The translations under genes were made by a program, and so were the position numbers. Shown here in pieces: positions 1 to 54,227 of a stretch of 64,000 nt of DNA. Under the pieces are notes generated by a model that ran no database searches, was not told where the DNA came from, and saw only the letters and a list, made by a program, of their open reading frames with translations. The DNA lies in the NCBI RefSeq assembly GCF_050320075.1, contig NZ_CP190018.1. The stretch is one strand, 5' to 3'. Within the stretch, counting starts at the first letter, position 1, and each line of letters starts with the position of its first letter. The stretch comes from Escherichia coli. GTDB taxonomy: Bacteria; Pseudomonadota; Gammaproteobacteria; Enterobacterales; Enterobacteriaceae.

Positions 1-256
1 ACATTTTTATATCTGTCAGGTTACTTCATTATGAAAACTGATCATCATCGTTGTTTTTGTTGCAATAGTAGAATACGCGTATTTATTCCTCCATCTCTAT
101 TAATAACGGCAATAAACTGTTCACTTCACTGATATTTAAAATATGTATCCTTTTCAAGCTGTTCAGCGGCGTAAGAAAAAGTATTAATTATGAATTCGAT
201 GATTTAACCATATCTGTCTGATTGGTAATCATCCGTGATTAATGCTGGTCTATTGA

Positions 257-1177: not shown

Positions 1178-1967
1178 CTTCGACTCCTTCCGGTTTAAAT
1201 GCGCGTGGAACAGTAATTTGATAATCCGGCTCCAGCCAGCCGCCGGGTATGATTTGCCGCTTTCCCGTACCTGTTTCTATACCGCTTTGATCAATATACT
1301 GAAAATAAGGGTGTCCATTACGCCGGGCAAGGTAAAGCATCACCCGGTTGGTTTTAACCGAATGGCTGGCGCGAAGCAGTGCCTGCAATTTGCGTGGGCT
1401 GAGAAGATTCAACCCCTGAAACAGAGCATCGGCATGTTCGAACGAGATTAACGAAGGAACGCCGCAGGCGATCTCATACGCGGCCAGTTCCGGAACACTG
1501 CCTGCTAACTGGCGGTCGCCAATTTTCAGTTCCGTAGTAAATGGCGTTACATCAGCGGTAAGGCCTGACGTATACAGCGTGACAAACGTTGCGGATTGTT
1601 CAAAGGCAGAAAACCATCCCGGCAGTTTGACGTAAGCCGGAAGCGCGAGCCAGACCTGCGGCTTACCCTGTTCGGTATAGTGCGCATGACCCTGAAGCGC
1701 AAGGCTGGTTAGCCCCGCCACCCGAACAGGCTTTTCCCACTGCGATTGCAGGCAGTAAACCGCATCCACCCAATCCGGTTCACGACCCGTCCGGCAGTAT
1801 ACGCCGTGAGCGATCCGCCTGAGCCAGCCATTCTTCACATAGAGATAAGAGAGCTTACGATCTATGCCGTTGCGGGTAAGCCATGACTGGAGCAGCACCT
1901 GGCCGGGTAGCGTGTGCTGCATCAGCCAGTTTAGATAGTTTGGCAACTGTCGCCTCTGAATAGACAT
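1164..1967 (-). CDS. abiEi: AbiEi-family antitoxin / transcriptional regulator
   Basis: 267-aa ORF directly upstream of and overlapping abiEii. N-terminal winged-helix-like segment (LTRNGIDRKLSYLYVKNGWLRRIAHGVY) as in AbiEi_4 proteins. Confidence 0.75.
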   Translation of the reverse strand: MSIQRRQLPNYLNWLMQHTLPGQVLLQSWLTRNGIDRKLSYLYVKNGWLRRIAHGVYCRTGREPDWVDAVYCLQSQWEKPVRVAGLTSLALQGHAHYTEQGKPQVWLALPAYVKLPGWFSAFEQSATFVTLYTSGLTADVTPFTTELKIGDRQLAGSVPELAAYEIACGVPSLISFEHADALFQGLNLLSPRKLQALLRASHSVKTNRVMLYLARRNGHPYFQYIDQSGIETGTGKRQIIPGGWLEPDYQITVPRAFKPEGVEDGSA

Positions 1968-2261
1968 TAGTACAAATATTTAAACCAGTGTAGATTCAGG
2001 GATACGCCACAGCAAGAAATAGTTTACTTATTCCTCATTTTGTCGACTAAAAATCGACATTAAACAAAAAATTCAAACTTAATCACTTTCGGGAAAAATG
2101 TGACAAATATATGCTCGGACTGGTTGCGGGGAGCGTGTAACATGGATACAAATCAAAATTATTGCCAGCCTCACTGATGGATTACTGGTGTCAAGAGCCC
2201 CCCTTCGGGCATGAAACGGCTGGCTAATTCTGTACAGACTGTAATCTAAGGACGATAACGC

Positions 2262-5200: not shown

Positions 5201-5471
5201 GCTGGATATTCATGCCTATACTATTTTAGTGAATAACCGAAAATACGGCGATAGTCGCGTACGTTCCCCGGCAAAAGAACCCTTTATGCGTGATATTGCT
5301 CGTGTGAAGGGCGGTGATAATGACTTTGTGGTCGCTGCAACGCTGGATATCGACTCGTTAAGGGCATTTCAGAGCAGGGCAAAACGCTGGCCTAAAGGCG
5401 GCGATAAATTCAAACCGTTACCTGAAGGATTCCAGTTGGCAAAGAACCGCAAAAAGCTACCGCCAAAATAA
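2262..5471 (+). CDS. Reverse transcriptase fused to a C-terminal nitrilase (C-N hydrolase) domain; defence-associated RT architecture (UG/Abi, DRT type 1-like)
   Basis: 1069-aa ORF. RT motifs: LDLKSYY (A), GLVIGLTASRIISNILL (B), YVDD at nt 3201-3212 (C). C-terminal FPE (E836, nt 4767-4769) and MICSE (C941, nt 5082-5084) fit the nitrilase-superfamily Glu/Cys. Confidence 0.85.
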   Translation: MTYQAIFTGWDDLTIEDLLVAYRKAKADSFFENTFPVAIKFAEYEQELLENLQKLLDLLQSEDGFSSNKKLIGKFRLLPKKLTTKKKHESQNGHVHFSNPKRAADHLFNNFDLIPEFRIIGDFPVDSHIISALWINMVGHKFDASLDNCCYGARLKRIRNDELFSNEQDNPFHISAVGSFSPYFQPYQKWRGDGLKAIRDELEKDRDIIAASLDLKSYYHFIDPLAITSDDLYNTLNIKLTEDEKAFTAQLAVFLKHWSDGAAAFGKKIAYKTPVINGGLVIGLTASRIISNILLHHWDKLVIEKLSPIHYGRYVDDMFLVIRDTGTITNNHEFMLLLQDRLGNDCVYLKNEQKQIWQIQQGEHFQGKTTIQLQSDKQKLFVLQGRAGIDLLDSIEKEIYELSSEHRLMPSPDQLEHSTAAKVLSAAGSVGENADTLRRADGLTIRRLGWSLQLRYVETLARDLPPSEWKEQREEFYQFAYNHILRADNLFAHFSYLPRLLGFAISMNEWQHAEKIVLKAYESINLLASVITSGKEVNINGCKTRAVNDLWRCIKGTLSWLFVDAATRYYSPDRLFLDKRSKKEECLADTFFNHISQSLTNLKDLLDLRFDSADFYLKAPLVARADLAKEPYKQIVKSQSAEKLVNQRDSKKEVKILKLMSDSSLIDIDVIKLFLKSTKNTRLEKVAKGNRKNESYLPYIFPTRPLTPAEISELAPECVGLPSTSDKKPDERPSTIWAKYTQALRGVWIKPTLLASEQDSDEATKKARPKKFIHIGTDRKHKVVVALTSIKTEEDDWAKMACNKSNLSRSRYQRISELVNATLKLSPKPDYVLFPELSIPLRWVNSIADRLSSAGISLIAGTEYRHLDDNQLKSEAVLVLSDNRLGYPASVKIWQPKLEPAVGEDEALFSIYGKSWDSTLNVKQRKPVYIHHGVNFGVMICSELQNSKARIRFQGALDALMVLSWNKDLDTFASLIESAALDIHAYTILVNNRKYGDSRVRSPAKEPFMRDIARVKGGDNDFVVAATLDIDSLRAFQSRAKRWPKGGDKFKPLPEGFQLAKNRKKLPPK

Positions 5472-5681
5472 GAAACTGATTTTCGCTATTAATAATCAGG
5501 GTATTTTTGCGTGAGATGTTGGTAAACATGATGTAGCCCTTGCCACTCATGACCAATCGCAGTATCTTTCTCCCGCGCCTGCAAAATCAGGCGTCGGGAT
5601 TAGCCTCCTGAAGAAATCTTATCGGCGACACATGACGCGCCAGCGTCTTTTTTTGTGTTGTTCGCACGGTTACATCTCAAT

Positions 5682-5761
5682 GGTGGGCCGGGCGGGGGCG
5701 TCGCAAGACGCGCCAGTGTCCGATAAGGCTGGTAAGGCTAACCCTGCCCGGTTCCACCACC
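5682..5761 (+). ncRNA. Relic P4-type CI-like immunity RNA (second copy, different specificity)
   Basis: The closing stem ggtgggccgggcgggg / ccctgcccggttccaccacc mirrors the resident satellite CI RNA. An internal ccgataagg...aggctaa is complementary to flanking cttatcgg / gattagcct elements at 5598-5625 and 5767-5807. Confidence 0.4.
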
Positions 5762-5817
5762 CGCGAGATTAGCCTCTCCGGTGGTGGCTTGAACACCCAC
5801 TTATCGGAGGTTGCCCT

Positions 5818-6288
5818 ATGGCTACAATCCTCACCACTGACAGCGATTTACTCGATCTATTGACCGTCCCCTTCAATGCCACCACGGATTTCACTGTCCT
5901 TGCTGACTACTGCGCCCGCTTTGCCGAAACCCTGATTGAAACCGACGATCCAGCGCTACGACTGGCGCTCTGCGGGCGGCTTCACGCGGCTCTTGCGCTA
6001 CTGCAACCCACACTACACGACCCCATCCCACCGCATCTTACCGAAAGCCTGACCGTGGATACCCTTCCCGCCACACCAGAGCACTTTATTTCCGAACCTG
6101 ATTCCTTGTGCGAATACTGCCTCGCACTACTCCAGCTTCTGCTGGAACGTCCGGCGGAACCAAAAATGGAGCAAACCCTGACCGGGCTGCTGTGTGAGCT
6201 GGTCTGGTATTTCACGGAAGGACTCAAAGCCCCACGCTGGCTGCGTACCGCCGACGGCGTAAAATTTATCAGCGAGGTGGCCGCATGA
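5818..6288 (+). CDS. Hypothetical protein (first ORF downstream of the relic CI-like cassette)
   Basis: 156-aa ORF. GGAGG SD at 5806-5810, overlapped by the seqC-like element. The stop overlaps the next ATG (ATGA). No family recognised. Confidence 0.45.
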
Positions 6289-6425
6289 TGCAACAGGACT
6301 GGCATTCCGCCGACATTATTGCGGTGCTGAAAAAGCGGGGAACGCCTCTGGCGGCACAGAGAAAAACTCATTGCGGAAGCGCTGTAAATATCGCCAGAAA
6401 TCATCTGGCCTTCAAGGTACTTTGA
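6285..6425 (+). pseudogene. Ner/Nlp-like HTH regulator, disrupted
   Basis: The first ~25 codons ([24 protein letters not shown]) resemble Ner/Nlp. The rest is out of frame: LIAEAL then a stop, with [11 protein letters not shown] readable in another frame. Confidence 0.5.
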
Positions 6426-6434
6426 TAGCAAAGG

Positions 6435-6637
6435 CAAGCAGGCTGGTTCAGTCCAGTGTTTCTCTTCTTGCATTTTCAGAAATGGGAGGCTGGGAGTCTA
6501 TCGAAATGGTTCGTCGATATGCTCACCTCGCGCCTAATCACCTTACCGAACACGCACGGCAAATAGACTCAGTCCTGAACCCATCGGTCCCAAATTTGTC
6601 CCAGTCAAAAAATAAGGAAGGTACTAATGATGTGTAA
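6435..6637 (+). pseudogene. Tyrosine integrase C-terminal fragment (P22-type Int relic)
   Basis: Clear nucleotide and protein similarity to the 3' end of int at 55507-55702 ([31 protein letters not shown] vs [31 protein letters not shown]). The N-terminal ~320 codons are missing. Confidence 0.8.
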
Positions 6638-6651
6638 CTTATTGATTTTAA

Positions 6652-6667
6652 TGGTGCGATAAGAGGA
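6652..6667 (-). other. Degenerate thrW 3'-end att copy (distal junction of the P4-like satellite)
   Basis: tggtgcgataagagga vs tggtgccgataatagga of thrW (1 deletion, 1 mismatch). Preceded by the same ttgattt(t/a)aa context seen between int and thrW at 55.7 kb. Confidence 0.5.
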
Positions 6668-6785
6668 ATGAATATTGCAAGTTAACGCATTGATTTATAA
6701 TAGATTATTATATTCAAAAAATATAACTATACACATATCTATACACACTGCGCGCATCGCTTGTTTTTCGCACAATTAAAAATAA

Positions 6786-7086
6786 GAAAAAAGTTTTTTT
6801 TCGAAAGAACTGTTCACACTGTTCACCTTTCTGTTTTCTCCTTTTATTTCAGTTTGATAGGTGGTGAATAATGGGTGAATGGTGAACATTCGATTCTTCA
6901 CCTCCGGCATTCTGCCGGTGTGACTCATACCGGTGATTAATCCCCCGTACTGAAATCACACAGGGAGAAAAAAAGTTTTTTTTGATTTGATTGTTCACAC
7001 TGTTCACCTTTCATTTTTCTCTTTTAATTTCAGTGTGATAACGGGTGAATATACGGTGAAGGGTGAACAGTGGATTGTTCACCTTC
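6786..7086. repeat. crr-like cis replication region: two ~120-bp direct repeats ~60 bp apart carrying TGTTCACC/GGTGAA iterons
   Basis: 6786-6903 and 6968-7086 align almost base for base (aaaaaagtttttttt...tgttcacactgttcaccttt...ggtgaa...ttcacct). Same architecture as P4 crr, downstream of alpha. Confidence 0.8.
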
Positions 7087-7101
7087 GGGGAATTCAGGGA
7101 T

Positions 7102-7126
7102 AAAAAAAGACCGGCAGATGCCGGTC
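7102..7126 (-). terminator. Intrinsic terminator after alpha
   Basis: gaccggc-agat-gccggtc hairpin followed by a T7 run on the minus strand, 17 nt after the alpha stop. Confidence 0.7.
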
Positions 7127-7142
7127 AGATGAGTCATGATGG

Positions 7143-9476
7143 TCAGGTTGTTGCAGGGTCGTCACATTTTGGCAGCCAGTCGCCGTAGCTTTCCTCTTTC
7201 AGCGTCAGGTTGGTCTGTATCCCCTGTTTGGTATGGCGCTTCTCGTAATTCAGTCCGTATTCCTTCAGCATCACCGGCAGCCCCAGCCCGAACATTTTCA
7301 GACTGAGTACATTCCGGTAGCCGTTTGCCTCCATGTAGGCCAGATAGGCGTGATAGAGGTATTTACGGTAATTACGCGGGATGATACTGGCGTTCCCCAT
7401 ATACATGCCGCTGGTCTGCGGCAGGGTTTCCAGATAGCCGATAAAATCAAACGTCGGGTCGGCATCCCGTTTGATGTTCAGCGCCTCGTCTGAGTTCTGC
7501 TGGGACTGAAGCAGTGACCGGGCGAGCATCGGGTCGCTGAACTTCTGCATCAGGTGACGCACGATGACCGCCAGCTCGCGGGTGATTTTGTCCTTAAGCT
7601 GCGGGTCGCGCTCCTGCGGGGCTATCTGTTCCGGGAAGTGAATAATCACCCGCCGGCGTGACACGCCGCCGCTGCGGTCGGTGAAGCGCATCGGGTTATT
7701 GTTCACGGCCAGAATTACCGCCGGGATATGCGTGGAGTATGCATCCCGGTATTTCGGGTCAACGGACACCGCATCGCCGCCGGTGATGGCCTTGAGTCCG
7801 GCACCGTCGCCGCTCCATTTTTCCTGGTCCGGCAGGCGTATCAGTGAGAAGCCAGTTAACGCGGCACGTTCACGCGGGGATTCCAGCGTCTCGATGGTGG
7901 CCGACGTGGCGTTATCCTCCCCGGCCAGCAGGGTGGCTATTTCGGCCATGATACTTTTGCCGCTGCCGCCGGGACCGGTCACCTCCAGAAAGAGCTGCCA
8001 GTCGTAGCGGTTTGCCAGCACCATAAACAGTGCGGCCAGAATCACGTCGCGTTTTTCCGCACGGCCACCGGCGGCACGGTCAAGCCAGCGCCAGAACGCG
8101 GGGGCGTGGGTCTCCAGCGTTTCACCGTCCACCGGCGGGGTGAAATCCACATCGCACAGGGTGCGCATCCAGTGTGACGGACTGTGCGGGTGGAACGTGC
8201 CGTTCTGCGTGTCGAGCACGCCGTTACGAAAGCCAATCAGGCGGCGGGAGGGGGCTTCCTGCTGCGGAATAATCAGCTTCAGGGTGTCCACCACGGAGGC
8301 CACCTTCCCGGAGGAGAACGGCGCGCGCAGACGCTGAAACAGCCCGGCCACATCCCGGGCAAAGTCCTGTGGTGGCAGCACCTTCCAGACACCATTTTCA
8401 TAACGGGACAGAAGCTGGCCGTTGGCATCGACCGCGAGCGCCTCGCCGTAATGCTCATAGATACGCATGGCCTTTTCGCTGGTACTCATGGCGGAAAACT
8501 CCGCTTCGCTCATGGTGTCGAACGGGCTTTCAGCCGGTGGCCGGATGGCATCATAAATGGCCTTACGGGTGGCTTCCCCGCCGTACTGCGTGAAGGCATC
8601 ATTCCAGTCACCGAAGACCGGCGGCAGGGCAACAACGCCCTCACACGCATCTGCGGCTGCGGCGGCTTTTTTCTGGCCGTCACCGCTGAGGTCACGGTCT
8701 GCGGCAAGGACAATCTGACAGGCCGGATGCTTCTGCCGGGCAAGGCTGGCCAGAGAAAGGAGGTTCACGGAAGAAAGCGCCACCATCACCGTTTCACCGG
8801 TCAGGTGATGTACGGTAAGTGCGGTCGCGTATCCCTCCGCTATCCACAGACGTTTTCCGGCCTGATTCTGTCCTTCAAGGGTGTGACAGGTGCCCCTGAC
8901 CTGTCCGCCTTTCAGGGTGCGCTTACGGCCGTCAGCACTGATTAACTGAAGGTTAACCAGTTCGCCGCTGTCGTCATACAGTGGCACCACAAGGTCACCG
9001 GCACGCCAGCTCACGCCACCGGCTCTGTGTGTGCCGGTCAGCATCCGGCATTCCCGGCCGGGAAAGCCCTTGCGGGTCAGGTAGGCGTTACCGGTTCCGG
9101 GACGGGTTTTCGCCATCAGGGTTTGTGCCAGTGCGGCGGCGTTCTTCCGGGCAGCGTCTGTTTCAGCACCGGCGGCAGCCGTCACTGCCGGGTCAGCCGG
9201 GGGCAGGCTGCCGGTCACGGCAGCCACCTTTGCTGCCGCGTCGGACGGGGAAACACCAAACACCTTTTCAACCAGTTTCAGGCCGTCACCGGCACCACAC
9301 TGATTGCAGTACCAGGTGCCGCGCCCCTCCCTGTCATCAAAACGGAAGCGGTCACTCCCGCCACAGACCGGACAGGGCTGATGACGGTTTTTCAGCACCT
9401 GAATCCCCAGCGCCGGGAGAATACGCGGCCAGTGGCCGAGCGCATGGCTGACGGTGGCGGTTACGTTCATTTTCAT
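7143..9476 (-). CDS. alpha: P4 alpha-type primase/helicase/origin-binding protein
   Basis: 777 aa, the same length as P4 gpalpha. N-terminal zinc-binding CPVCGG...CNQCG, TOPRIM-like core and a GPGGSGKS Walker A motif. Confidence 0.9.
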   Translation of the reverse strand: MKMNVTATVSHALGHWPRILPALGIQVLKNRHQPCPVCGGSDRFRFDDREGRGTWYCNQCGAGDGLKLVEKVFGVSPSDAAAKVAAVTGSLPPADPAVTAAAGAETDAARKNAAALAQTLMAKTRPGTGNAYLTRKGFPGRECRMLTGTHRAGGVSWRAGDLVVPLYDDSGELVNLQLISADGRKRTLKGGQVRGTCHTLEGQNQAGKRLWIAEGYATALTVHHLTGETVMVALSSVNLLSLASLARQKHPACQIVLAADRDLSGDGQKKAAAAADACEGVVALPPVFGDWNDAFTQYGGEATRKAIYDAIRPPAESPFDTMSEAEFSAMSTSEKAMRIYEHYGEALAVDANGQLLSRYENGVWKVLPPQDFARDVAGLFQRLRAPFSSGKVASVVDTLKLIIPQQEAPSRRLIGFRNGVLDTQNGTFHPHSPSHWMRTLCDVDFTPPVDGETLETHAPAFWRWLDRAAGGRAEKRDVILAALFMVLANRYDWQLFLEVTGPGGSGKSIMAEIATLLAGEDNATSATIETLESPRERAALTGFSLIRLPDQEKWSGDGAGLKAITGGDAVSVDPKYRDAYSTHIPAVILAVNNNPMRFTDRSGGVSRRRVIIHFPEQIAPQERDPQLKDKITRELAVIVRHLMQKFSDPMLARSLLQSQQNSDEALNIKRDADPTFDFIGYLETLPQTSGMYMGNASIIPRNYRKYLYHAYLAYMEANGYRNVLSLKMFGLGLPVMLKEYGLNYEKRHTKQGIQTNLTLKEESYGDWLPKCDDPATT

Positions 9477-9490
9477 GGTGTTGTTCTCCT

Positions 9491-9811
9491 TCAGTGCAGT
9501 ACCGGCGCTTTTATGTGACGGGCACAGAGTTCATCCATCACAACCAGCCCGAGAAAGGACAGCGACGGCGCGGCCTTCAGGGGGCCGGATTCCATTAAAT
9601 CTTCCAGCAGGGCACAGGCTATCTGACGCCCTTTTTCCTCACCGTGCTGGCGCAGATAAAAGCCTTCCAGCTCAGCGGCGATGGCCGCCTCCAGTGATTC
9701 AAGGGTGAGATGCGGGTAGCGGTGCTGACGTTCGCACACGGTCAGCCAGGCACAGGCGACAGCGCGACGGTAAAGGGCTGCGCGTAAGACGGGCGGTAAG
9801 GGTGTTTTCAT
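9491..9811 (-). CDS. P4 orf106-like protein
   Basis: 106-aa ORF immediately upstream of alpha, with the position and length of P4 orf106. Confidence 0.6.
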
Positions 9812-9946
9812 TTGTTTTCCTCCCTGTGACAGATGACTGCATTCCGTGCCGGTTGCATTAACTGATAAGGCATATCTGCGTCTCCTGAAGACGTGCGTAT
9901 CCCTGCGCGAATACGCACATTTAATTTTTCGGGTGTCGTTTTTTAA

Positions 9947-10402
9947 TTACAGATAATTGCGGTAACTGTTATCCGGGGTGATTTCCGGGTCAGGCTCCGT
10001 GCGGGGAATTTCCCGCCATTCCCGCGCCACCGGTGCCGCCCGGCTGGCCGGAACAGTGTCCTGCGGGTAAATATCCAGATATTTCTCCCGCCATTTCTGT
10101 AATTCCGGGTCTCCGGCCATTTCTTTCAGTACCGCATGCCGGTTTACGGGGCTGCGTTTAAACAGGTCAGGACGGTCACAGGTAAATTCCCGCAGAAAAC
10201 GCCCCAGCGGGATGTCTGTGGTGCGCCCGTCAGCGAGGATACGCACAAGGATACTGAATTTACGGCGGTACGGGTTCCAGACAATGTCCGGGCAGCGGTA
10301 CGGCATTTCCCACGGAATACCGTCTTCCAGAATGCCGACCACGGCCACATCGGGAAAACCGGCAGAACGGTAAATCTCACCGGGCTGGGGAAAATCAAAC
10401 AT
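9947..10402 (-). CDS. P4 orf151-like protein
   Basis: 151-aa ORF between epsilon and orf106, with the position and length of P4 orf151. Confidence 0.6.
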   Translation of the reverse strand: MFDFPQPGEIYRSAGFPDVAVVGILEDGIPWEMPYRCPDIVWNPYRRKFSILVRILADGRTTDIPLGRFLREFTCDRPDLFKRSPVNRHAVLKEMAGDPELQKWREKYLDIYPQDTVPASRAAPVAREWREIPRTEPDPEITPDNSYRNYL

Positions 10403-10682
10403 GCGTCCTGTCTCCCCGGTCTTTCTGCTGGGCGAGAAAATCGCGGCACAGGCCTTTGGCTTTCAGTTCATTCAGCACAAAATCAATATCTTCATTCAGG
10501 TAGCTGAAAATATGCGGAATGTAGAGCTGATGCAGGCCGGAGAGTTCACGGTGAATCAAATCACCCCCAACAAACCGGGATACGGCGCTGGCGCGGTTGA
10601 GCTTATGGTAAGCCTCAATGCTGAGGTGTTCACGGGCGTCATGACGCGCTGAGACGGTCTGAGGGGCTTTTTTATTACGCAC
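10395..10682 (-). CDS. epsilon: P4 epsilon-like antirepressor (derepresses helper prophage)
   Basis: 95 codons from a GTG at 10680-10682, with GGAGG upstream. Length and position match P4 epsilon. The ORF-track 177-aa ORF is an upstream over-extension. Confidence 0.6.
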
Positions 10683-10872
10683 GGGACACCTCCACCACCG
10701 GCAGACGGGCAGCAAGGGAGAGCACATAGTCACGGACAAGGGAACGGCGGGCGCTGCGTTCATCACCGGCGACGGTGCGAAGCATACAGATACGGGGATG
10801 ACGATCTGCGCGACGGACAGCCGCAAACACAAAGACAAATTCAGGGTGTGAGGTGGTAAGGGTTGTAGCCAT
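10675..10872 (-). CDS. Small ORF (65 aa) downstream of CI RNA; eta-position gene
   Basis: ATG at 10870-10872. Its GGAGG SD (10881-10885) lies inside the seqC-like element, as for the first translated ORF after cI in P4. Confidence 0.5.
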
Positions 10873-10883
10873 GATGGCAGCCT

Positions 10884-10924
10884 CCTTGAAGTAACAGTTA
10901 CAGCTACCACTGGAGTTCCTACGC
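10884..10924 (-). promoter_or_regulatory. seqC-like target of CI RNA
   Basis: Minus-sense gcgtaggaac...ttacttcaagg is complementary to the CI seqB ccttgaagg...ttcctac. Near-duplicate of 11106-11131. Confidence 0.65.
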
Positions 10925-11010
10925 TCATGGGTGGTAGCCCGGACGGGGGTAGGAATACCGGCCTTCAAGGAAACCGGCCAGCCCGAAGGCTGCCCCGCCC
11001 GGACCACCAT
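10925..11010 (-). ncRNA. cI: P4-type CI immunity RNA (contains seqB at 10949-10970)
   Basis: A long closing stem (atggtggtccgggcgggg / ccccgtccgggctaccac) encloses ccttgaaggccggtattcctac, which is complementary to both seqA-like and seqC-like elements. Position between PLE and epsilon. Confidence 0.65.
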
Positions 11011-11105
11011 TATCTGACAGAGGCTACGGTTTAAAAACCACAGCCAGAAAAACAGGTGTGCCGAAGCAACGACGTAAAAAAAGACGCATGGCGCGTCATA
11101 TGTCG

Positions 11106-11131
11106 CCTTGAAGTAACTCGGGTTCCTACGC
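11106..11131 (-). promoter_or_regulatory. seqA-like target of CI RNA (overlaps the RBS of a 22-codon kil-position ORF starting at 11101-11103)
   Basis: ccttgaagtaactcgggttcctacgc on the plus strand is a near-duplicate of the seqC-like element and complementary to seqB. Confidence 0.6.
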
Positions 11132-11225
11132 CCGGCTGCCGATTTTGCGGCAGCGGAAAAACTATATCCGCAAATGCCGGAAAAAGGCAAGCCAGAAAAA
11201 GGGACTTTTTGCAGAACAGGCATCA

Positions 11226-11492
11226 TCATGCGTCATACCCCCGTTGGCGTCCGGCAATGCGGCCGGCCATCCATGCGGTGACTTCAGAGTGCAGCCAGGC
11301 CACATTTTTACCGCCAAGACTCACCTGCGGCGGAAATTCCCCCTTACGGATGAGTTCATAGATGGTCGAGCGTGACAGGCCGCACAGGTGCATCACTTCC
11401 GGCAGACGTAAAAAACGCTCCTGCGTGATGTCCGGCAGCGGCATCAGTGGCGTCACAGGGGCGGGAGACGGGGAAGAAAAAACAGCTTGCAT
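11226..11492 (-). CDS. vis: Vis/AlpA-family excisionase-regulator (P4 orf88)
   Basis: 88 aa. The MerR/AlpA-type HTH ([27 protein letters not shown]) and the position between PLL and PLE match P4. Confidence 0.8.
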
Positions 11493-11594
11493 CGGGCTAC
11501 CTCGTTAATGTCCATACAGCACCGGATAAGTCCGTCCGGCTTCTGGTAGCGCTTTATTTTGTGAATATTTTCAGCAGACGCAACAGGGGGAATT

Positions 11595-11612
11595 TGTTCC
11601 GGCAACCTTACA
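11595..11612. promoter_or_regulatory. TGT-N12-ACA activator dyad of PLL-type late promoter
   Basis: tgttccggcaaccttaca. Centred ~110 nt upstream of the vis start, consistent with a -55 Ogr/Delta-type site. Confidence 0.6.
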
Positions 11613-11770
11613 ATGGCTGTGTGTTTTTTATCCATCTGGACTGGAAGGGTCTCAAAGGGTTCTGAAGGACCTGGAATTTTTTATAGTGAAATACAAATTG
11701 TTTTTTCTTATTTATTTCAGTGAATTAATAAAAATAAACAGTGATAAACAGCATAAAAAGCCCATCAACG

Positions 11771-11884
11771 GGTGAACAGTGGTGAACAGACGGTGAACAG
11801 TCATTACTGCGATTGTTCACCCTTTAACTTACTGTATTACTTATCTTTTTTCTTATGGTGAACAGAGGTGAACAGTAAAATATA
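11771..11884. repeat. P4-type ori: six GGTGAACA/TGTTCACC type I iterons
   Basis: Copies at 11771, 11781, 11793, 11814 (inverted), 11867 and 11877. Same 8-mer as in crr. An AT-rich stretch lies upstream (11690-11760). Confidence 0.8.
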
Positions 11885-11953
11885 AAAAAACAAACAGTAA
11901 GCCGGTTTTTCCTGCGACCTTTTCCTGGCTTGCCGGTCTGAGGATGAGTCTCC

Positions 11954-11971
11954 TGTGTCAGGGCTGGCACA
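11954..11971. promoter_or_regulatory. TGT-N12-ACA activator dyad of Psid-type late promoter
   Basis: tgtgtcagggctggcaca, ~80 nt upstream of the sid ATG (12044). Consistent with a -55 Delta/Ogr site. Confidence 0.65.
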
Positions 11972-12043
11972 TCTGCAATGCGTCGTGTTGCTGTCCGGTG
12001 TACGTCACAATTTTCTTAACCTGAAGTGACGAGGAGCCGGAAA

Positions 12044-12778
12044 ATGTCTGACCACACTATCCCTGAATATCTGCAACCCGCACTGGCACAACTGGAAAAG
12101 GCCAGAGCCGCCCATCTTGAGAACGCCCGCCTGATGGATGAGACCGTCACGGCCATTGAACGGGCAGAGCAGGAAAAAAATGCGCTGGCGCAGGCCGACG
12201 GAAACGACGCTGACGACTGGCGCACGGCCTTTCGTGCAGCCGGTGGTGTCCTGAGCGACGAGCTGAAACAGCGCCACATTGAGCGCGTGGCACGCCGGGA
12301 GCTGGTACAGGAATATGACAATCTGGCCGTGGTGCTGAATTTCGAACGTGAACGCCTGAAAGGGGCGTGTGACAGCACGGCCACCGCCTACCGGAAGGCA
12401 CATCATCACCTTCTGAGTCTGTATGCAGAGCATGAGCTGGAACACGCCCTGAATGAAACCTGTGAGGCGCTTGTCCGGGCAATGCATCTGAGCATTCTGG
12501 TACAGGAAAATCCGCTCGCCAACACCACCGGCCATCAGGGCTACGTCGCACCCGATAAGGCTGTCATGCAGCAGGTGAAATCATCGCTGGAACAGAAAAT
12601 TAAACAGATGCAAATCAGCCTCAGCGGCGAGCCGGTTCTCCGGCTGACCGGACTGTCAGCGGCAACACTTCCGCACATGGATTATGAGGTGGCAGGCACA
12701 CCGGCACAGCGCAAGGTGTGGCAGGACAAAATAGACCAGCAGGGAGCAGAGCTTAAGGCCAGAGGACTGCTGTCATGA
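12044..12778 (+). CDS. sid: Sid capsid size-determination (external scaffold) protein
   Basis: 244 aa from the ATG at 12044 (GAGGAG SD), the same length as P4 Sid. Helical and charged. First gene of the sid-delta-psu operon. Confidence 0.8.
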   Translation: MSDHTIPEYLQPALAQLEKARAAHLENARLMDETVTAIERAEQEKNALAQADGNDADDWRTAFRAAGGVLSDELKQRHIERVARRELVQEYDNLAVVLNFERERLKGACDSTATAYRKAHHHLLSLYAEHELEHALNETCEALVRAMHLSILVQENPLANTTGHQGYVAPDKAVMQQVKSSLEQKIKQMQISLSGEPVLRLTGLSAATLPHMDYEVAGTPAQRKVWQDKIDQQGAELKARGLLS

Positions 12779-13275
12779 TTTACTGCCCGTCGTGTGGACA
12801 TGTTGCTCACACCCGTCGCGCACATTTCATGGACGATGGCACCAAGATAATGATTGCACAGTGCCGGAATATTTATTGCTCTGCGACATTTGAAGCGAGT
12901 GAAAGCTTTTTCTCTGACAGTAAAGATTCAGGAATGGAATACATTTCAGGCAAACAGAGATACCGCGATTCACTGACGTCAGCCTCCGGCAGTATGAAAC
13001 GCCCGAAAAGAATGCTTGTTACCGGATATTGTTGTCGGAGATGTAAAGGCCTTGCACTGTCAAGAACATCGCGGCGTCTGTCTCAGGAAGTCACCGAGCG
13101 TTTTTATGTGTGCACGGATCGGGGCTGTGGTCTGGTGTTTAAAACGCTTCAGACCATCAACCGTTTCATTGTCCGCCCGGTCACGCCGGACGAACTGGCA
13201 GAACGCCTGCATGAAAAACAGGAACTGCCGCCAGTACGGTTAAAAACACAATCATATTCGCTGCGTCTGGAATGA
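12775..13275 (+). CDS. delta: Delta (duplicated Ogr-type zinc-finger late activator)
   Basis: 166 aa. Two CxxC...CxxxxC Ogr-like halves (CPSCGH...CRNIYC and CRRCKG...CTDRGC). ATGA-coupled to sid. Confidence 0.85.
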   Translation: MIYCPSCGHVAHTRRAHFMDDGTKIMIAQCRNIYCSATFEASESFFSDSKDSGMEYISGKQRYRDSLTSASGSMKRPKRMLVTGYCCRRCKGLALSRTSRRLSQEVTERFYVCTDRGCGLVFKTLQTINRFIVRPVTPDELAERLHEKQELPPVRLKTQSYSLRLE

Positions 13276-13348
13276 GGGCTGCCGGTTAACACCGGCCGTC
13301 GCCGCACACCGTATTTTTATTCTTCAGCATGATGAGAAAGAGATAACG

Positions 13349-13921
13349 ATGGAAAGCACAGCCTTACAGCAGGCCTTTGACACCTGTCAGAATAACAAAG
13401 CAGCATGGCTGCAACGCAAAAATGAGCTGGCAGCGGCCGAACAGGAATATCTGCGGCTTCTGTCAGGAGAAGGTAGAAACGTCAGTCGCCTGGACGAATT
13501 ACGCAATATTATCGAAGTCAGAAAATGGCAGGTGAATCAGGCTGCCGGTCGTTATATTCGTTCGCATGAAGCCGTTCAGCACATCAGCATCCGCGACCGG
13601 CTGAATGATTTTATGCAGCAGCACGGCACAGCACTGGCGGCCGCACTGGCACCGGAGCTGATGGGCTACAGTGAGCTGACGGCCATTGCCCGAAACTGTG
13701 CCATACAGCGTGCCACAGATGCCCTGCGTGAAGCCCTTCTGTCCTGGCTTGCGAAGGGGGAAAAAATTAATTATTCCGCACAGGATAGCGACATTTTAAC
13801 GACTATCGGATTCAGGCCTGACGCGGCTTCTGTGGATGACAGCCGTGAAAAATTCACCCCTGCGCAGAACATGATTTTTTCGCGTAAAAGTGCGCAACTG
13901 GCATCACGTCAGTCTGTGTAA
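13349..13921 (+). CDS. psu: Psu (polarity suppression / capsid decoration, Rho antagonist)
   Basis: 190 aa, the same length and position as P4 Psu. Confidence 0.8.
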   Translation: MESTALQQAFDTCQNNKAAWLQRKNELAAAEQEYLRLLSGEGRNVSRLDELRNIIEVRKWQVNQAAGRYIRSHEAVQHISIRDRLNDFMQQHGTALAAALAPELMGYSELTAIARNCAIQRATDALREALLSWLAKGEKINYSAQDSDILTTIGFRPDAASVDDSREKFTPAQNMIFSRKSAQLASRQSV

Positions 13922-14085
13922 AATTCCCCGAAAATCCGCCTGTTTTTACTGAAAAAAGCCATGCATCGATAAGGTGCATGGCTTTGCATGCGTTTTCCTG
14001 CCTCATTTTCTGCAAACCGCACCATTCCCGGCGCGGTCTGAGCGTGTCAGTGCAACTGCATTAAAACCGCCCCGCAAAGCGGGCG

Positions 14086-14104
14086 GGCGAGGCGGGGAAA
14101 GCAC
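14086..14104. other. P2/P4-type cos cohesive-end sequence
   Basis: ggcgaggcggggaaagcac matches the 19-nt P2/P4 cohesive end as I recall it. Located after psu as in P4. Confidence 0.7.
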
Positions 14105-14122
14105 TGCGCGCAACAATGATGA

Positions 14123-15517
14123 TTATGATTTCATTTTATCTGCAATATCTTCTAAGGAATCAAAGAATGCTTTGACAAAGTTGTCTTTATTAACAGTAGT
14201 AAAGTTTTGATTGTAAAATCCTACACATGCAGAAAAAATTGCTCTGCAAGTTAGCTCATTATATTTAGATGAATATAATGGTTCGACTCCACGATACACG
14301 GACCAAGAACCATGAGCTATATCAGACCTAGTCTTATACATTTCCTGAGCCACTCTAGCCCATTTTTTTTCATCTTGATAATAAATAGAAACTAATGAAG
14401 AAACACGACTTACGAAGTTCTTTGTTGTAGATGAATCCTTTTTTTCGCTACTTAGACTAACCAGCCGTTCAAGAGCCGTTGTTAATTTTACTATACGAGA
14501 ACTTTCATCCTTATCCTGTTGTGCGCTACTAAATAAATAGATAGCATCAATTAGCCTGTCTGCAATTACAGAGTTTTCATGAGGTTCTATCGCCAACTCT
14601 ATTAACCGAGAAAGAACTAACCCTAAGTCAGATTTGTAATCATCTTCAAACTTATTCCAAAACTCACCGCTATTGGCTATAGTCCCTTTAGTTGAGTAAT
14701 GATAGTTAAACATTTCGTTTGGTTTCTTGGAAAGATAAAAGCCGTCATAATTTGGGTAAGGATCTGTTGATATACTTAAAAAGTATGGGGAGATATTATA
14801 GTGCACACCAAATAGCTGTAGTATCCCAACCACAAAACATGCAATATTTTTAGCGATTCTCTGCCTACTTAACTTAGAGCGTTTGCTAACAGGGATTTTT
14901 AGGTAGTGTTTATAATGAAATTTATGAGAAGAACAAAATTTCTTAGCTAAATCAAGTTGTTGCTCAGTAAAATCATCACTAATAGTTAAGTGCATTTTTT
15001 CTGCCGATATAATATCAACTCGGCCAATAGACATTATATCTCGTTCCAACCCGTGAGCTAAAATAGGATAATAAAAATCCTCTTCAGACATTTCTCTCCT
15101 TGTTAGTTTTAATGTTTTATTTAGGAGGATAGTACATCCACTCCTGTCGCAACTGCCGTTCTCAACCCAAATATGCATAAACAATATTTTCTTAAGATTA
15201 CTTAAAAATTCATCGGTAGTAACTAGCATTTCTAAGCGATTTGATTTTATAAATCTAGCCGAAATAGCATATAACTTCTCATAAGAGGCATATGATAGAT
15301 GAATTTGAGTTCTAGAAAGATCTGTTCTTCCTTTTATTAGTTCATATGGTGCATCTATGGTCATTCCCAATGAACCAAAATTACCATTATATTCTTTTTT
15401 GTAAAATTCCATAAAATTAGATGAGGATGTTAACTCTTTATTTATTCTAACAGCCTCATCAAGAATAAATTTAAAATCTTTAACGTCTTCCAAACTGGCA
15501 CTCATCATTTTCACCAT
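14123..15517 (-). CDS. Orphan cargo protein with C-terminal HEPN-like Rx4H motif; candidate anti-phage effector
   Basis: 464-aa ORF, markedly AT-rich. Fills the cos-int slot. R397-S-D-I-A-H402 (nt 14312-14329) sits in a helical C-terminal region. Start ambiguous (15517, 15508 or 15505) and overlaps the int 3' end. Confidence 0.6.
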   Translation of the reverse strand: MVKMMSASLEDVKDFKFILDEAVRINKELTSSSNFMEFYKKEYNGNFGSLGMTIDAPYELIKGRTDLSRTQIHLSYASYEKLYAISARFIKSNRLEMLVTTDEFLSNLKKILFMHIWVENGSCDRSGCTILLNKTLKLTRREMSEEDFYYPILAHGLERDIMSIGRVDIISAEKMHLTISDDFTEQQLDLAKKFCSSHKFHYKHYLKIPVSKRSKLSRQRIAKNIACFVVGILQLFGVHYNISPYFLSISTDPYPNYDGFYLSKKPNEMFNYHYSTKGTIANSGEFWNKFEDDYKSDLGLVLSRLIELAIEPHENSVIADRLIDAIYLFSSAQQDKDESSRIVKLTTALERLVSLSSEKKDSSTTKNFVSRVSSLVSIYYQDEKKWARVAQEMYKTRSDIAHGSWSVYRGVEPLYSSKYNELTCRAIFSACVGFYNQNFTTVNKDNFVKAFFDSLEDIADKMKS

Positions 15518-16685
15518 TTAAATTAATAATAAAATCACTATACCACTGCATCATTTTCTTTCGATCTTCTATATACTGTGCATGATTATATACACCACGT
15601 ATCGTGTTTTTATCCACATGAGCCAACTGCATTTCAATCCAAGCAGTATTAAAACCATTTTCATGGAGTATTGTTGATAATGTATGCCTAAATCCATGTC
15701 CTGTAAGTTTTCCCGCATAGCCTATGCGTTTGATAAGTTGATTAACACTTGCCTCACTCATAGGTTTGTTTGGATCATTCCGTCCCGGGAAAACATAACG
15801 ATAATTTCCTGTCATAGATTTAAGTTCATTAAGAAAGCCTAATACCTGGGTCGATAAGGGGACTAGGTGCGGCCTACGCATTTTCATTTTTTCGGCAGGA
15901 ATTTCCCAAATAGCGTTGTCCAGATCAAACTCTTGCCATAATGCCGCTCGCAACTCGATAGTTCTAACCCCAGTAACCATCAATAATTTTGTGGCAATCT
16001 GAACAAGTCGGCTTCCTGCATAACTATCTAAAGCACGCAGAAAATCAGGTATCTCATCTGATTTTAAGAAAGGAAAATGATTTGATTTGTGTACTTCGAG
16101 GGCACTGGACAGATCTGCCGCAGGATTAAACTCTGCTCTTCCGGTAGCAATAGCATATCGAAAAACCTCTGAGCAACGTTGCCGCACTTTGCGCATTTTC
16201 TCCAATGCACCACGTTTCTCAATTTTACGCAGCACATTTAGCAATTCTAGCGGTTTAATTTCCCCTACAGGCCTCGTCCCTACATACGGAAAAATATCAT
16301 TTTGGAACGCCTCAATAATATCTGAGGCATACCCAGCAGACCATTTTGCCGACTTCATCTGATGCCACTCTCTGGCAATCTTTTCGAATGCGTTCTCAGA
16401 TTGAATTCGTAATGCTAATTTTTGTTCTTTTCGAACCTCACTAGGATTTTTTCCCTCGGCCACTATTTTTCTGGCCTCATCACGGCGGGCGCGAGCTTCA
16501 GCAAGTGTGATCGTTGGATAAACACCAAGCGAGATCATTTTAGGTTTACCTGCATAGCGATAACGAAATCGCCAGCTTTTACTTCCATTTGGCTCTACAA
16601 GTAAAGACAACCCTTGCCCATCCCCAAGTGTATAGGCTTTAGCTTCAGGTTTAGCACGGCGAATCTGCATATCATTTAGGGGCAT
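15480..16685 (-). CDS. int: Tyrosine integrase, P4-Int family (DUF4102-type N-terminus)
   Basis: 401 aa. N-terminal LSLLVEPNGSKSWRFRYRYAGK arm-binding-type domain. C-terminal HGFRHT...LAHVDKNTIRGVYNHA catalytic region. Adjacent to the att copy. Confidence 0.9.
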   Translation of the reverse strand: MPLNDMQIRRAKPEAKAYTLGDGQGLSLLVEPNGSKSWRFRYRYAGKPKMISLGVYPTITLAEARARRDEARKIVAEGKNPSEVRKEQKLALRIQSENAFEKIAREWHQMKSAKWSAGYASDIIEAFQNDIFPYVGTRPVGEIKPLELLNVLRKIEKRGALEKMRKVRQRCSEVFRYAIATGRAEFNPAADLSSALEVHKSNHFPFLKSDEIPDFLRALDSYAGSRLVQIATKLLMVTGVRTIELRAALWQEFDLDNAIWEIPAEKMKMRRPHLVPLSTQVLGFLNELKSMTGNYRYVFPGRNDPNKPMSEASVNQLIKRIGYAGKLTGHGFRHTLSTILHENGFNTAWIEMQLAHVDKNTIRGVYNHAQYIEDRKKMMQWYSDFIINLNGENDECQFGRR

Positions 16686-16849
16686 GTGTATAGAATTCCA
16701 AAATCGAACAGGAACATATACATAATCCTATACACATTTAGTACTGGATTCTACTGGAAGGTTATGGACTAACACGGACAACGATAACAAAAAATCTTTT
16801 ATAAAACAGTATGCTTATGGACAAATACGGACGTTTGAAGAAGTTGGGA

Positions 16850-52108: not shown

Positions 52109-52731
52109 GCACGGTAGCGAACGATCTCACAGAAGATATTCTCAATGAAATTATTGCTGGTGCAAATACCTCGCTTGAGCAACTTCTTGCGTTAGCACTG
52201 AGAGCCGAACGTCGAGACAGAAATCGTTTTTATGAGCGATTACCAGGGAAGCGACCAGATAGATCGGATGAAGAAGGTTGCGATATAGACTACATGGAGC
52301 CTTCAGAGATTTATCAACTTGGTAAAGATGACGGCTGGAACGCTTATCACGATGCTGTGATGAAGTTGGATGAAAAAGTTAAACCTCTTTCTCGACCGGT
52401 AGATCACGGTTTCCGCGATAACTGCGAATGCTCTAGTTGCCAGACCACGACCCGTATTTGTTCCGAATTGACAGATAAGTCCAGCCTAATCTACGAAGTT
52501 AATGTAGGCGGTAATACATGGGTCGAATGCACAAGAGCTGCATACGTAAGAGCAAAAGACAAGGGTGAATTAACCAGAGTTGTTACCAATCACCCAAATA
52601 ATGAGCTTAAAGATCACCAGATTCGAGAACTGGTGAACGAGTTGAGAGATATTGCGGTTCAGTACCACGGAACGCAGCAATTGCGGGAGAAGATTGCCAG
52701 AGCAGTGAACAACTCAGTCCGTAAAAAATAA
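52105..52731 (+). CDS. Hypothetical early protein
   Basis: 208-aa ORF, ATGA-coupled. Followed by a hairpin at 52749-52773. Confidence 0.45.
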   Translation: MSTVANDLTEDILNEIIAGANTSLEQLLALALRAERRDRNRFYERLPGKRPDRSDEEGCDIDYMEPSEIYQLGKDDGWNAYHDAVMKLDEKVKPLSRPVDHGFRDNCECSSCQTTTRICSELTDKSSLIYEVNVGGNTWVECTRAAYVRAKDKGELTRVVTNHPNNELKDHQIRELVNELRDIAVQYHGTQQLREKIARAVNNSVRKK

Positions 52732-52786
52732 GCAATAGTACGATAAAGAGGCCCCATGCTCTTGATGGGGCCTGTAGCAACTAGCG

Positions 52787-52870
52787 TTATGGACGCTGGT
52801 TTACGTACTCAATGATCGCTTTGATAATCGCGAACATCGGCGGCACGATTTTGAACAGTAAGTTAACCAT
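52787..52870 (-). CDS. 27-aa hydrophobic peptide (candidate type I toxin)
   Basis: MVNLLFKIVPPMFAIIKAIIEYVNQRP. GAGG SD 6 nt upstream of the ATG. Convergent with the early operon. Too short for the ORF track. Confidence 0.35.
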   Translation of the reverse strand: MVNLLFKIVPPMFAIIKAIIEYVNQRP

Positions 52871-53117
52871 AACAGGCCTCACTTAGTTTTATCGCGCCTA
52901 GCTGCAAATACCTTTGGGCTTGCCTTTGCAGTTGCAATATCTGTAGTCGCCAGATACTTACGGCACGATTTCGAGTTAAGGTAAGGTTTTAGAGTCACCA
53001 AAAACCTGGACTTAAATCTTCTTTGAGAACAACGATGTTTAGTAAATGGTCATTATTACCTGGTATGACCACTCAACGTTTCTTGATGAATCCAGTACAT
53101 TCGGTTAATCTTAATTC

Positions 53118-53170
53118 AGTCGCCAGATACTTATGGCTCAGGAACAGAGCCGCAAACTCTGTTTCCTTTT
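53118..53170 (+). ncRNA. Candidate sRNA whose 5' end is complementary to the peptide-mRNA leader
   Basis: ttgatg -17 nt- taatct promoter-like sequence at 53083-53111. The 16-nt agtcgccagatactta (also at 52945-52960) sits at the predicted 5' end. Ends in the ggaacagag/ctctgtttcc hairpin plus TTTT. Confidence 0.3.
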
Positions 53171-53201
53171 AAAAAGCCCAGCCTAGTCAACTGGGCTTTT
53201 T
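53171..53201. terminator. Bidirectional hairpin terminator
   Basis: The aaaaagcccag...ctgggcttttt stem is flanked by A5 and T5 runs. Confidence 0.6.
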
Positions 53202-53496
53202 AATGTCTATTTTTAACCCAATGAACCTTCAATACCGTAACATCAGTGTCTTGCGAATTAAGATAGTGTGTATAGGTTATGCATGCAAGTACATAACTCT
53301 GTGGATAACTCAGGAAGGAAAAAGTAGCTCCCGCGCAATTTAGGCCAGACAAGGCTTTCGCAAAAGTCAACAGAGAGAAAAAATTTGTTAAAAATAACGT
53401 TTGTTGGAATTGTATATATTTATGCCTTTCAATAGTTAGCATCTTATTAACATCTTTTTTAAGAGATAGAGTTCAAAAATATATAGCTTCAACATA

Positions 53497-53516
53497 TACT
53501 GTATGTGTATACAGTA
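53497..53516. promoter_or_regulatory. LexA (SOS) box
   Basis: tactgtatgtgtatacagta is a perfect TACTG-N10-CAGTA palindrome, 17 nt upstream of the umuD'-like start codon. Confidence 0.85.
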
Positions 53517-53532
53517 TTAAGAGGCGAGTATT

Positions 53533-53922
53533 ATGGGCTTCCCTTCTCCTGCGGCGGATTATGCTGAGAGCCGTATTTCTCTTGATCAGCAGATAATTAG
53601 ACATCCTTCAGCGACCTACTTCATGAGGGCAGCTGATAGTCATCATCGTGAGGGAATATTACAGGGTGCATTGCTGGTGGTCGATTCCTCACTTACCCCG
53701 GTTGATGGTTCTCTGCTTGTATGCGCTCTGGATGGGGAATATCGCGTAAAAAGATACCGGAAGTATCCACGTCAGCATCTGGAGGATTTAAGAACCGGTA
53801 AGAAGGAAGCATTGCCAAAGGATGACGATGGATGCACGGGCAGCAATGCCGTGTTTGGTGTGATCACTCACATTATCAACGACGCAAGAAGTGGCGAGTT
53901 TGATGATTGTCCCGTGATGTAG
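53533..53922 (+). CDS. UmuD'-like S24-family protein lacking the N-terminal cleavable arm
   Basis: 129 aa beginning MGFPSPAADY, i.e. at the residue after the UmuD Cys24-Gly25 cleavage site. DS (Ser) and VKR (Lys) align with UmuD Ser60/Lys97. No umuC in the window. Confidence 0.75.
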   Translation: MGFPSPAADYAESRISLDQQIIRHPSATYFMRAADSHHREGILQGALLVVDSSLTPVDGSLLVCALDGEYRVKRYRKYPRQHLEDLRTGKKEALPKDDDGCTGSNAVFGVITHIINDARSGEFDDCPVM

Positions 53923-54227
53923 GAGAACTGATTAGGCGGTGCAATGCACCGCCTTTTTATCACACTGCGCGGAATGCGATTTCGCCAGGTATTACTTCAC
54001 CTTGCCAATACATTTGGACAGCAGACTTTCGGCGATGCGTTGCACTTGTTGAGCAGATTCCAGAAATCAGAGATTCATTCGACAAGGTTGCAAAGCGCGT
54101 TCCGGCATTCAAAGGAATCCTCAACGAATGGGATTCCCTCGTTGATCTGTTGAAGTCTGAAATGAAGATACACGGAAACAAAGCACCAGAGACTTACAGA
54201 AGAATTAGCGAGTTACGCAAGGACTAA
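53907..54227 (+). CDS. Hypothetical protein (eaC position)
   Basis: 106-aa ORF between the umuD'-like gene and xis. Confidence 0.4.
   Translation: MSRDVGELIRRCNAPPFYHTARNAISPGITSPCQYIWTADFRRCVALVEQIPEIRDSFDKVAKRVPAFKGILNEWDSLVDLLKSEMKIHGNKAPETYRRISELRKD

Follow-up and report, generated by a model that had tools for sequence, protein, structure and literature searches.

Pre-activated forms of the SOS mutagenesis protein UmuD have been known from bacteriophage P1 since 1999. According to a passage of PMC9603915 the P1 gene humD is a LexA-regulated SOS gene, and an excerpt of PMC7092418 and McLenigan et al. 1999 (J Bacteriol 181:7005), the latter by its title, present HumD as a substitute for UmuD' that facilitates SOS mutagenesis. 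The RefSeq record of P1 annotates a "LexA binding site in the regulatory region of lxr and humD" and credits HumD with functional complementation of E. coli UmuD'. In E. coli UmuD' is produced by RecA*-mediated cleavage of a 139-aa precursor and is encoded in an operon with umuC.

Here we describe a humD gene from an E. coli prophage within a 64-kb stretch of DNA, in the following called the window. In contrast to UmuD' of the host, HumD of the window is translated directly and has no operon partner. Both proteins share the S24 fold, the N-terminal residue, the GFPSPAADY arm and the Ser and Lys positions, and the spacing between the LexA box and the ATG is alike. The window protein differs from UmuD' in several places: it reads ADSH where UmuD' has GDSM, lacks one residue ahead of the Ser, has gained a short insertion around residues 100-104 and is extended by 13 residues at the C-terminus. 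HumD of P1 (humD, P1_gp103) is the closer relative. It likewise has 129 aa, the M-GFPSPAADY start, the motifs ADSH and KRY and the C-terminal tail; identity is 91% with 11 amino-acid substitutions, and P1 humD also lacks a cognate umuC. The settings are dissimilar. P1 is a plasmid prophage with lxr divergent upstream and phd-doc downstream of humD, whereas the window carries an integrated P22-like prophage with ea genes and xis-int around the gene. Judged by its sequence the window gene is humD, the P1-type homologue of UmuD', and its detection is a rediscovery of a gene already known and named.

Identity and N-terminus of the window protein

The product matched the NCBIfam equivalog NF051876 "HumD family" with 219.8 bits at a cut-off of 120, residues 1-129 covering positions 1-129 of the 129 in the profile. 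With the model of the autoproteolytic UmuD subfamily (NF007621) it scored 87 bits, which is below the cut-off of 110, while Pfam PF00717 (Peptidase_S24) gave 37.9 bits versus 23.3. The PHROGs assignment was "UmuD-like protein". UmuD' and UmuD (1umu, 1ay9, 1i4v, 8gmt) were the closest solved structures by sequence and fold, followed by LexA C-domains; the comparison with the UmuD' structure 1umu yielded E = 7e-23. The AlphaFold2 model had a low-confidence pLDDT of 60.7 because the alignment had little depth, none of its sequences being less than 67% identical, and it served as a coarse fold check and a weak hint at tail flexibility only. Its top Foldseek matches were 8gmt (UmuD on a RecA filament), 1umu and 1ay9. 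RefSeq contains an identical protein, WP_000506720.1, for which annotation runs differ between the names "S24 family peptidase" and "HumD family translesion DNA polymerase". Comparison with P1 humD yielded a dS of 0.77 and a dN of 0.042, and the dN/dS of 0.055 showed purifying selection; with relatives more distant than P1 synonymous sites were saturated.

The sequence-only reading that preceded this analysis had claimed that the protein starts at the activated form and has no cleavable arm. K-12 UmuD reads ...LVQC24-G25FPSPAADY, the window product begins MGFPSPAADY, and the start of the ORF thus coincides exactly with the N-terminus of UmuD'. Because an in-frame TAA precedes the ATG (Table 1), a longer N-terminus is impossible. 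With Met directly before GFPSPAADY the protein has neither an N-terminal arm nor a Cys/Ala-Gly cleavage site, and the claim was borne out. Ser36 (ADSH) and Lys73 (RVKRY) aligned with Ser60 and Lys97 of UmuD in the solved UmuD' chains and in the family alignment. This agrees with the earlier statement that the catalytic residues are kept while ADSH replaces GDSM.

Operator, cassette and prophage setting

The operator TACTGTATGTGTATACAGTA matched the 20-nt LexA consensus TACTGTATATATATACAGTA in 18 of 20 positions with both mismatches in the central spacer. It was the only site with three or fewer mismatches in the 64-kb window, and none of 100 dinucleotide shuffles contained one, in line with the LexA box proposed previously at this place. 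The looser core CTGT-N8-ACAG occurred twice in the window with 0.79 expected and is neither rare nor significant on its own. Between the box and the ATG we counted 16 nt instead of the 17 nt given earlier, a trivial difference; the corresponding gap is 19 nt in P1. The layout resembles that of K-12 umuDC, where the LexA box ends 19 nt 5' of the umuD ATG. Aligned upstream regions of the window and P1 had essentially just the box and the bases close to the ribosome-binding site in common, and the flanks diverged.

The -10 hexamer of a candidate sigma-70 promoter extends 4 nt into the LexA box. Promoter-like sites in the region upstream of humD were no more numerous than in shuffles, and the assignment of this candidate as the exact humD promoter is weak. 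humD may be a prophage moron, an autonomous accessory gene with its own promoter and terminator: a strong terminator is present at its 3' side and the weak promoter-like site at its 5' side, and the module that carries it is swapped as a whole with phage-plasmids. It is plausible that an N-antiterminated early-left transcript would read through into humD during lytic growth.

Table 1. Features of the humD cassette and of the P4-like satellite (positions in the 64-kb window)
Feature	Position	Strand	Basis and remarks
Mosaic module with humD, operator and terminator	52396-54023	+	blastn, 99.4% to "Escherichia phage Cyrano" (~108-kb record)
Candidate sigma-70 promoter	53472-53500	+	TTCAAA, 17 nt, TATACT; weak consensus match, 9/12
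LexA operator (SOS box)	53497-53516	+	single site in the window; aligned with the annotated LexA site of the P1 record
In-frame TAA stop	53518-53520	+	translation of 53401-53922; five codons 5' of the ATG
Ribosome-binding site AAGAGG	53519-53524	+	sequence reading; 8 nt before the ATG
humD, 129-aa pre-truncated UmuD'-like accessory protein	53533-53922, stop included	+	ATG start, NF051876, PF00717
Intrinsic terminator	53934 to 53954/53960	+	terminator scan; 9-bp stem with 7 GC pairs, then T-run
Satellite primase-helicase	7143-9476	-	
Satellite derepression protein	10395-10928	-	
Satellite Ogr/Delta	12775-13275		
Satellite Psu	13349-13921		
Satellite integrase	15480-16685	-	

The part of the window from 16849 to 64000 was 99.99% identical to E. 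coli SB0258h1. The P22-like prophage is integrated at tRNA-Thr (thrW) beside proA. According to the PGAP annotation of SB0258h1 it encodes a P22-family capsid, the head-completion proteins gp4 and gp10, needle, ejection proteins and tailspike as well as Arc, a LexA-family repressor, Erf and an anti-RecBCD protein, and it carries ead/Ea22-like genes. humD separates the early-left ea genes from xis-int, with a gene-free gap of about 800 nt on its 5' side; the terminator, a gene fragment, xis, int and the tRNA follow on its 3' side in this order.

A search of the whole 64-kb window by tblastn with K-12 UmuC returned no match. umuC was also absent from the PGAP annotation of the colinear SB0258h1 region, and the insertion that SB0258h1 lacks is a P4-like satellite. 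The claim that neither the prophage nor the window contains umuC was therefore upheld by all three checks. Host umuC DNA was present in 5,422 of 5,426 complete E. coli genomes. The satellite (6668-16848, ~10 kb), absent from the otherwise near-identical SB0258h1, has an additional 464-aa ORF at 14123-15517 (-) with no Pfam match. Beside it, window positions 1-6667 (= L003 10199-16866) form a defence-type island; its PGAP annotation includes the toxin-antitoxin pair AbiEii/AbiEi and an "RNA-directed DNA polymerase" encoded by a gene of 3.2 kb.

The stretch 5' of humD (52732-53532, ~800 nt) is without an annotated gene and was 99.6% conserved in phage Cyrano. Its last ~210 nt were 83% identical to P1/P7 DNA located about 2.5 kb upstream of the humD genes of these phages, and a terminator-like hairpin was seen at 53180-53197. 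An 80-aa ORF at 53200-53442 (-), divergent from humD and not annotated by PGAP, matched phrog_28987 end to end (E = 1e-55). Placed like lxr of P1 relative to humD it could share the LexA-controlled region; it may also be a spurious ORF call in phage records that are nearly identical. In the segment 52600-54400 no Rfam family exceeded its gathering score.

Other E. coli plasmids of ~105-120 kb had positions 51227/51239-54023 in common with the window at ~99%, and the shared module ranged from 1.6 to 2.8 kb. This identity of ~99% with plasmid DNA argues for a recent exchange of the cassette between phage-plasmids and the integrated prophage. Homology to P1 by blastn was confined to 53497-53921, i.e. 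box and gene, at 84%. At the right module boundary (54023) there is a gene fragment, 54021-54227 (+), which PGAP annotates as a pseudogene without N-terminus and which matches phrog_1229 in its C-terminal part. Recombination probably joined the two sequences at this fragment. The exact humD arrangement of the window was found in 3 of 5,426 complete E. coli genomes, while humD-like DNA occurred in 764 of them (~14%). Of its locations 690 were on plasmids, mostly phage-plasmids, and 112 on chromosomes, and humD is thus common in mobile elements of E. coli. We regard it as slightly new that humD sits at a P22-like ea/int junction by way of a module common to phage-plasmids.

Architecture and sequence decay in the HumD family

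HumD-type genes are annotated in P1, P7, D6, RCS47, SJ46, N15 (gp26), phiKO2, HK140 and HK639; further matches by tblastn lay in MG40 and ST-35, and Sf101 and Stx phages contained remnants. Truncated umuD genes, for which the sequence-only reading had suggested a survey of other P22-like ea regions, were indeed present in P22-like and lambdoid phages, often beside attP/int. In the P22-like Lederbergvirus BTP1 (L045 2501-2873) a HumD-like sequence of 63% identity was recovered in two tblastn pieces between gtrA and int. The BTP1 record leaves it unannotated and calls a hypothetical ORF on the opposite strand; judged by the two pieces this copy is probably frameshifted.

We further compared 29 HumD loci from other genera of Enterobacteriaceae at 50-72% identity. 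All 29 started ATG-GGN (M-G-F-P-S-P), and in none did tblastn with K-12 UmuC detect a UmuC homologue within 6 kb on either side. With one core mismatch allowed and 1.2 kb upstream searched, a LexA-like box preceded the gene in 28 of the 29 loci; a strict CTGT-N8-ACAG search found it in just 13. The boxes fell into three layouts: near -37 as in the window and P1, as a pair at -63 and -39, or near -280. With this last layout a conserved 79-aa gene (phrog_3893) is placed between the box and humD, and its stop abuts the humD ATG. The 79-aa gene belongs to no Pfam family, and neither the window nor P1 has it. It was seen at about -240 to -1 from humD in ten loci (L006, L013, L019, L022-L024, L026, L027, L029 and L033), as gp27 of HK140 (L046 2262-2501) and 5' of the very divergent HumD-like genes L039 and L041-L043. 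In lineages that carry it, the 79-aa gene looks like an obligate operon partner of humD. In HK140 a dinI homologue, gp26 (L046 1910-2176), encoding a RecA-filament binder, is situated beside attP and divergent from the pair of 79-aa gene and humD; together they are a small SOS-related accessory island.

Some homologues were longer, with 148-223 aa, and a normal UmuD arm was considered for them. It was rejected as they are fusions or over-calls with the 79-aa gene that read ...IAM-GFPSP. Met, not Ala/Cys, was always 5' of the Gly in these proteins, and the reading of HumD as a protein without an arm survived this check.

An exhaustive representative search returned 3,416 homologues at E <= 0.001. 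Sequence features were tabulated for 78 near-complete representatives at 50% identity from the best 150 of these, with 43 arm-bearing proteins and 29 with an M1-G2 start. Ala or Cys preceded the Gly in 38/43 arm-bearing proteins and in none with an M1-G2 start, where Met is residue 1. The dyad Ser was kept in 39/43 arm-bearing representatives versus 2/29 with an M1-G2 start (Thr in 11, Ala in 5), and the dyad Lys in 39/43 versus 10/29 (Arg in 10). An acidic C-terminal tail, scored by a regular expression, was detected in 0/43 and 7/29, respectively. The close HumD family of 121 sequences with at least 67% identity started exactly with M1-G2 in 110 cases; at the nucleophile position it had Ser in 76, Thr in 43 and Ala in 2, and 118 kept Lys73. 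The pattern of dyad decay in these alignments indicates that catalytic constraint was relaxed once the arm was lost. Because the dyad decays across pre-truncated homologues, Ser36 and Lys73 are no evidence of kept proteolysis, and the retention of both residues in the window copy is a feature of the P1 subgroup.

A Chitinophagaceae MAG (L035 6001-7595) contains a pre-truncated M-GFPSPAADY UmuD'-like gene with a stop three codons upstream, a lost dyad (NDLM for GDSM, RR for KK) and a umuC homologue directly downstream. Therefore pre-truncation together with a cognate polymerase also exists outside the HumD clade.

Two segments were nearly invariant, the N-terminal MGFPSPAxDY and, within the close HumD family, the tail ...GEFDDCPVM. 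The tail of the window protein, DARSGEFDDCPVM, comprises residues 117-129 and is encoded at 53881-53919; variants in other pre-truncated lineages were GEFDDTPF and DEFDEIPCI. The AlphaFold2 confidence was below 50 in this segment, a weak hint that the acidic tail is probably flexible. The C-terminal tip of SSB is DFDDDIPF, and the HumD tail is loosely like it. One may speculate that the HumD clade is more than a pre-cut UmuD': the tail could be a docking motif that recruits HumD-UmuC to sites of SSB partners, competes there, or binds the 79-aa partner, and the N-terminal peptide could serve to bind a partner instead of being a remnant of the cleavage site. We hold this to be improbable; if it were true, phage HumD would have a function distinct from that of host UmuD'. 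Dyad decay and the frequent 79-aa partner together imply that the selected function of the family may not be just the replacement of UmuD'. The combination of dyad decay, invariant N-terminal peptide, acidic tail and frequent 79-aa partner appears to be a mildly new family pattern.

Proposed function and comparison with known systems

We favor the view, with a probability of about 0.8, that humD of the window is a LexA-controlled unit for a pre-activated UmuD' that works with host UmuC. In the undamaged lysogen host LexA would occupy the operator and keep humD off. Upon DNA damage RecA* would trigger self-cleavage of LexA and humD would be transcribed. HumD would be made directly in the UmuD' form, starting from the equivalent of Gly25, and would not need the slow RecA*-mediated self-cleavage. 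A HumD dimer would then join SOS-induced host UmuC and RecA/ATP in a Pol V-like translesion polymerase. Lesion bypass and mutagenesis would accordingly occur earlier and independent of UmuD processing, on the host chromosome as well as on a damaged prophage or phage genome. P1 HumD reportedly dimerises and binds UmuC and RecA filaments. Its complementation is said to be strong only on over-expression, with poor native expression; if native expression is equally low here, the physiological effect of humD may be small. The proposal that SOS induction supplies ready-made UmuD' for use with host UmuC, bypassing the cleavage step, is thus supported; it equals the published description of P1 HumD and is not new.

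HumD might instead act mainly as a modulator or antagonist, by forming heterodimers with UmuD or UmuD' or by coating RecA*. It would then alter the UmuD checkpoint, turnover by ClpXP/Lon, RecA recombination or repressor cleavage and in this way tune induction. Several observations point in this direction: the repressor of the prophage is itself of the LexA family (S24) and RecA*-dependent (L004 2212-2865), the best fold match of the low-confidence model is UmuD on a RecA filament, and the nearly invariant clade-specific tail, which canonical UmuD lacks, hints at an extra partner. The back-to-back arrangement of the HK140 humD cassette and dinI lends slight support. Yet the 91% identical HumD of P1 is described in the excerpt of PMC7092418 and in the McLenigan et al. 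1999 title as a positive replacement of UmuD' in mutagenesis, and we consider a mainly modulatory role unlikely.

Even less probable in our opinion is a still-active S24 serine protease that acts in trans on, e.g., UmuD of the host or a different substrate of LexA type. UmuD-like proteins are capable of intermolecular cleavage, both dyad residues align with those of UmuD, and the Lys is nearly universal in close relatives. Against this, the nucleophile is replaced by Thr or Ala in more than a third of the same relatives, the window protein has ADSH for GDSM, and Ser and Lys are lost steeply in pre-truncated as opposed to arm-bearing representatives. Just as far-fetched seems the notion that humD arrived recently as a mosaic fragment and is carried along as an inert passenger that does nothing for the prophage. 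The 99% identity of the module with phage-plasmid DNA and its end at the gene fragment fit a recent illegitimate or mosaic recombination, the exact arrangement is rare among complete genomes, and BTP1, Sf101 and Stx phages contain humD-like sequences that are broken. However, ORF, ribosome-binding site, operator and terminator are all intact, the low dN/dS relative to P1 speaks for selection on the protein, and the operator is conserved across genera.

If humD is expressed, a lysogen could build its Pol V-like mutasome before RecA* has brought about the cleavage of UmuD. This could raise damage tolerance and the supply of mutations, including antibiotic-induced mutagenesis under quinolones, and could help replication of the damaged prophage genome during induction. 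The window copy adds no new principle to what is known from P1. It documents movement of the humD cassette from one kind of element to another, here phage-plasmids and integrated prophages of P22 type, and the share of complete E. coli genomes with humD-like DNA makes the gene relevant to modelling SOS mutagenesis in natural isolates as opposed to K-12.

Beyond P1 the nearest relatives are the genes of N15, phiKO2, HK140 (gp28), HK639, BTP1, MG40 and ST-35. They belong to the same pre-truncated HumD family at 60-71% identity and are often found beside attP and int. HK140 and many chromosomal prophage loci carry phrog_3893 between the LexA box and humD, unlike the window, and the BTP1 copy is broken, unannotated and located on the gtr side of att. 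The mucAB, impCAB, rumAB and samAB operons of plasmids or ICEs resemble humD in that they are LexA-regulated, borne by mobile elements and encode accessory proteins of the UmuD family. In contrast to humD they specify full-length cleavable precursors with an Ala/Cys-Gly site and an intact dyad along with their own Y-family polymerase, the type that was also seen in the surveyed arm-bearing homologues and at locus L040.
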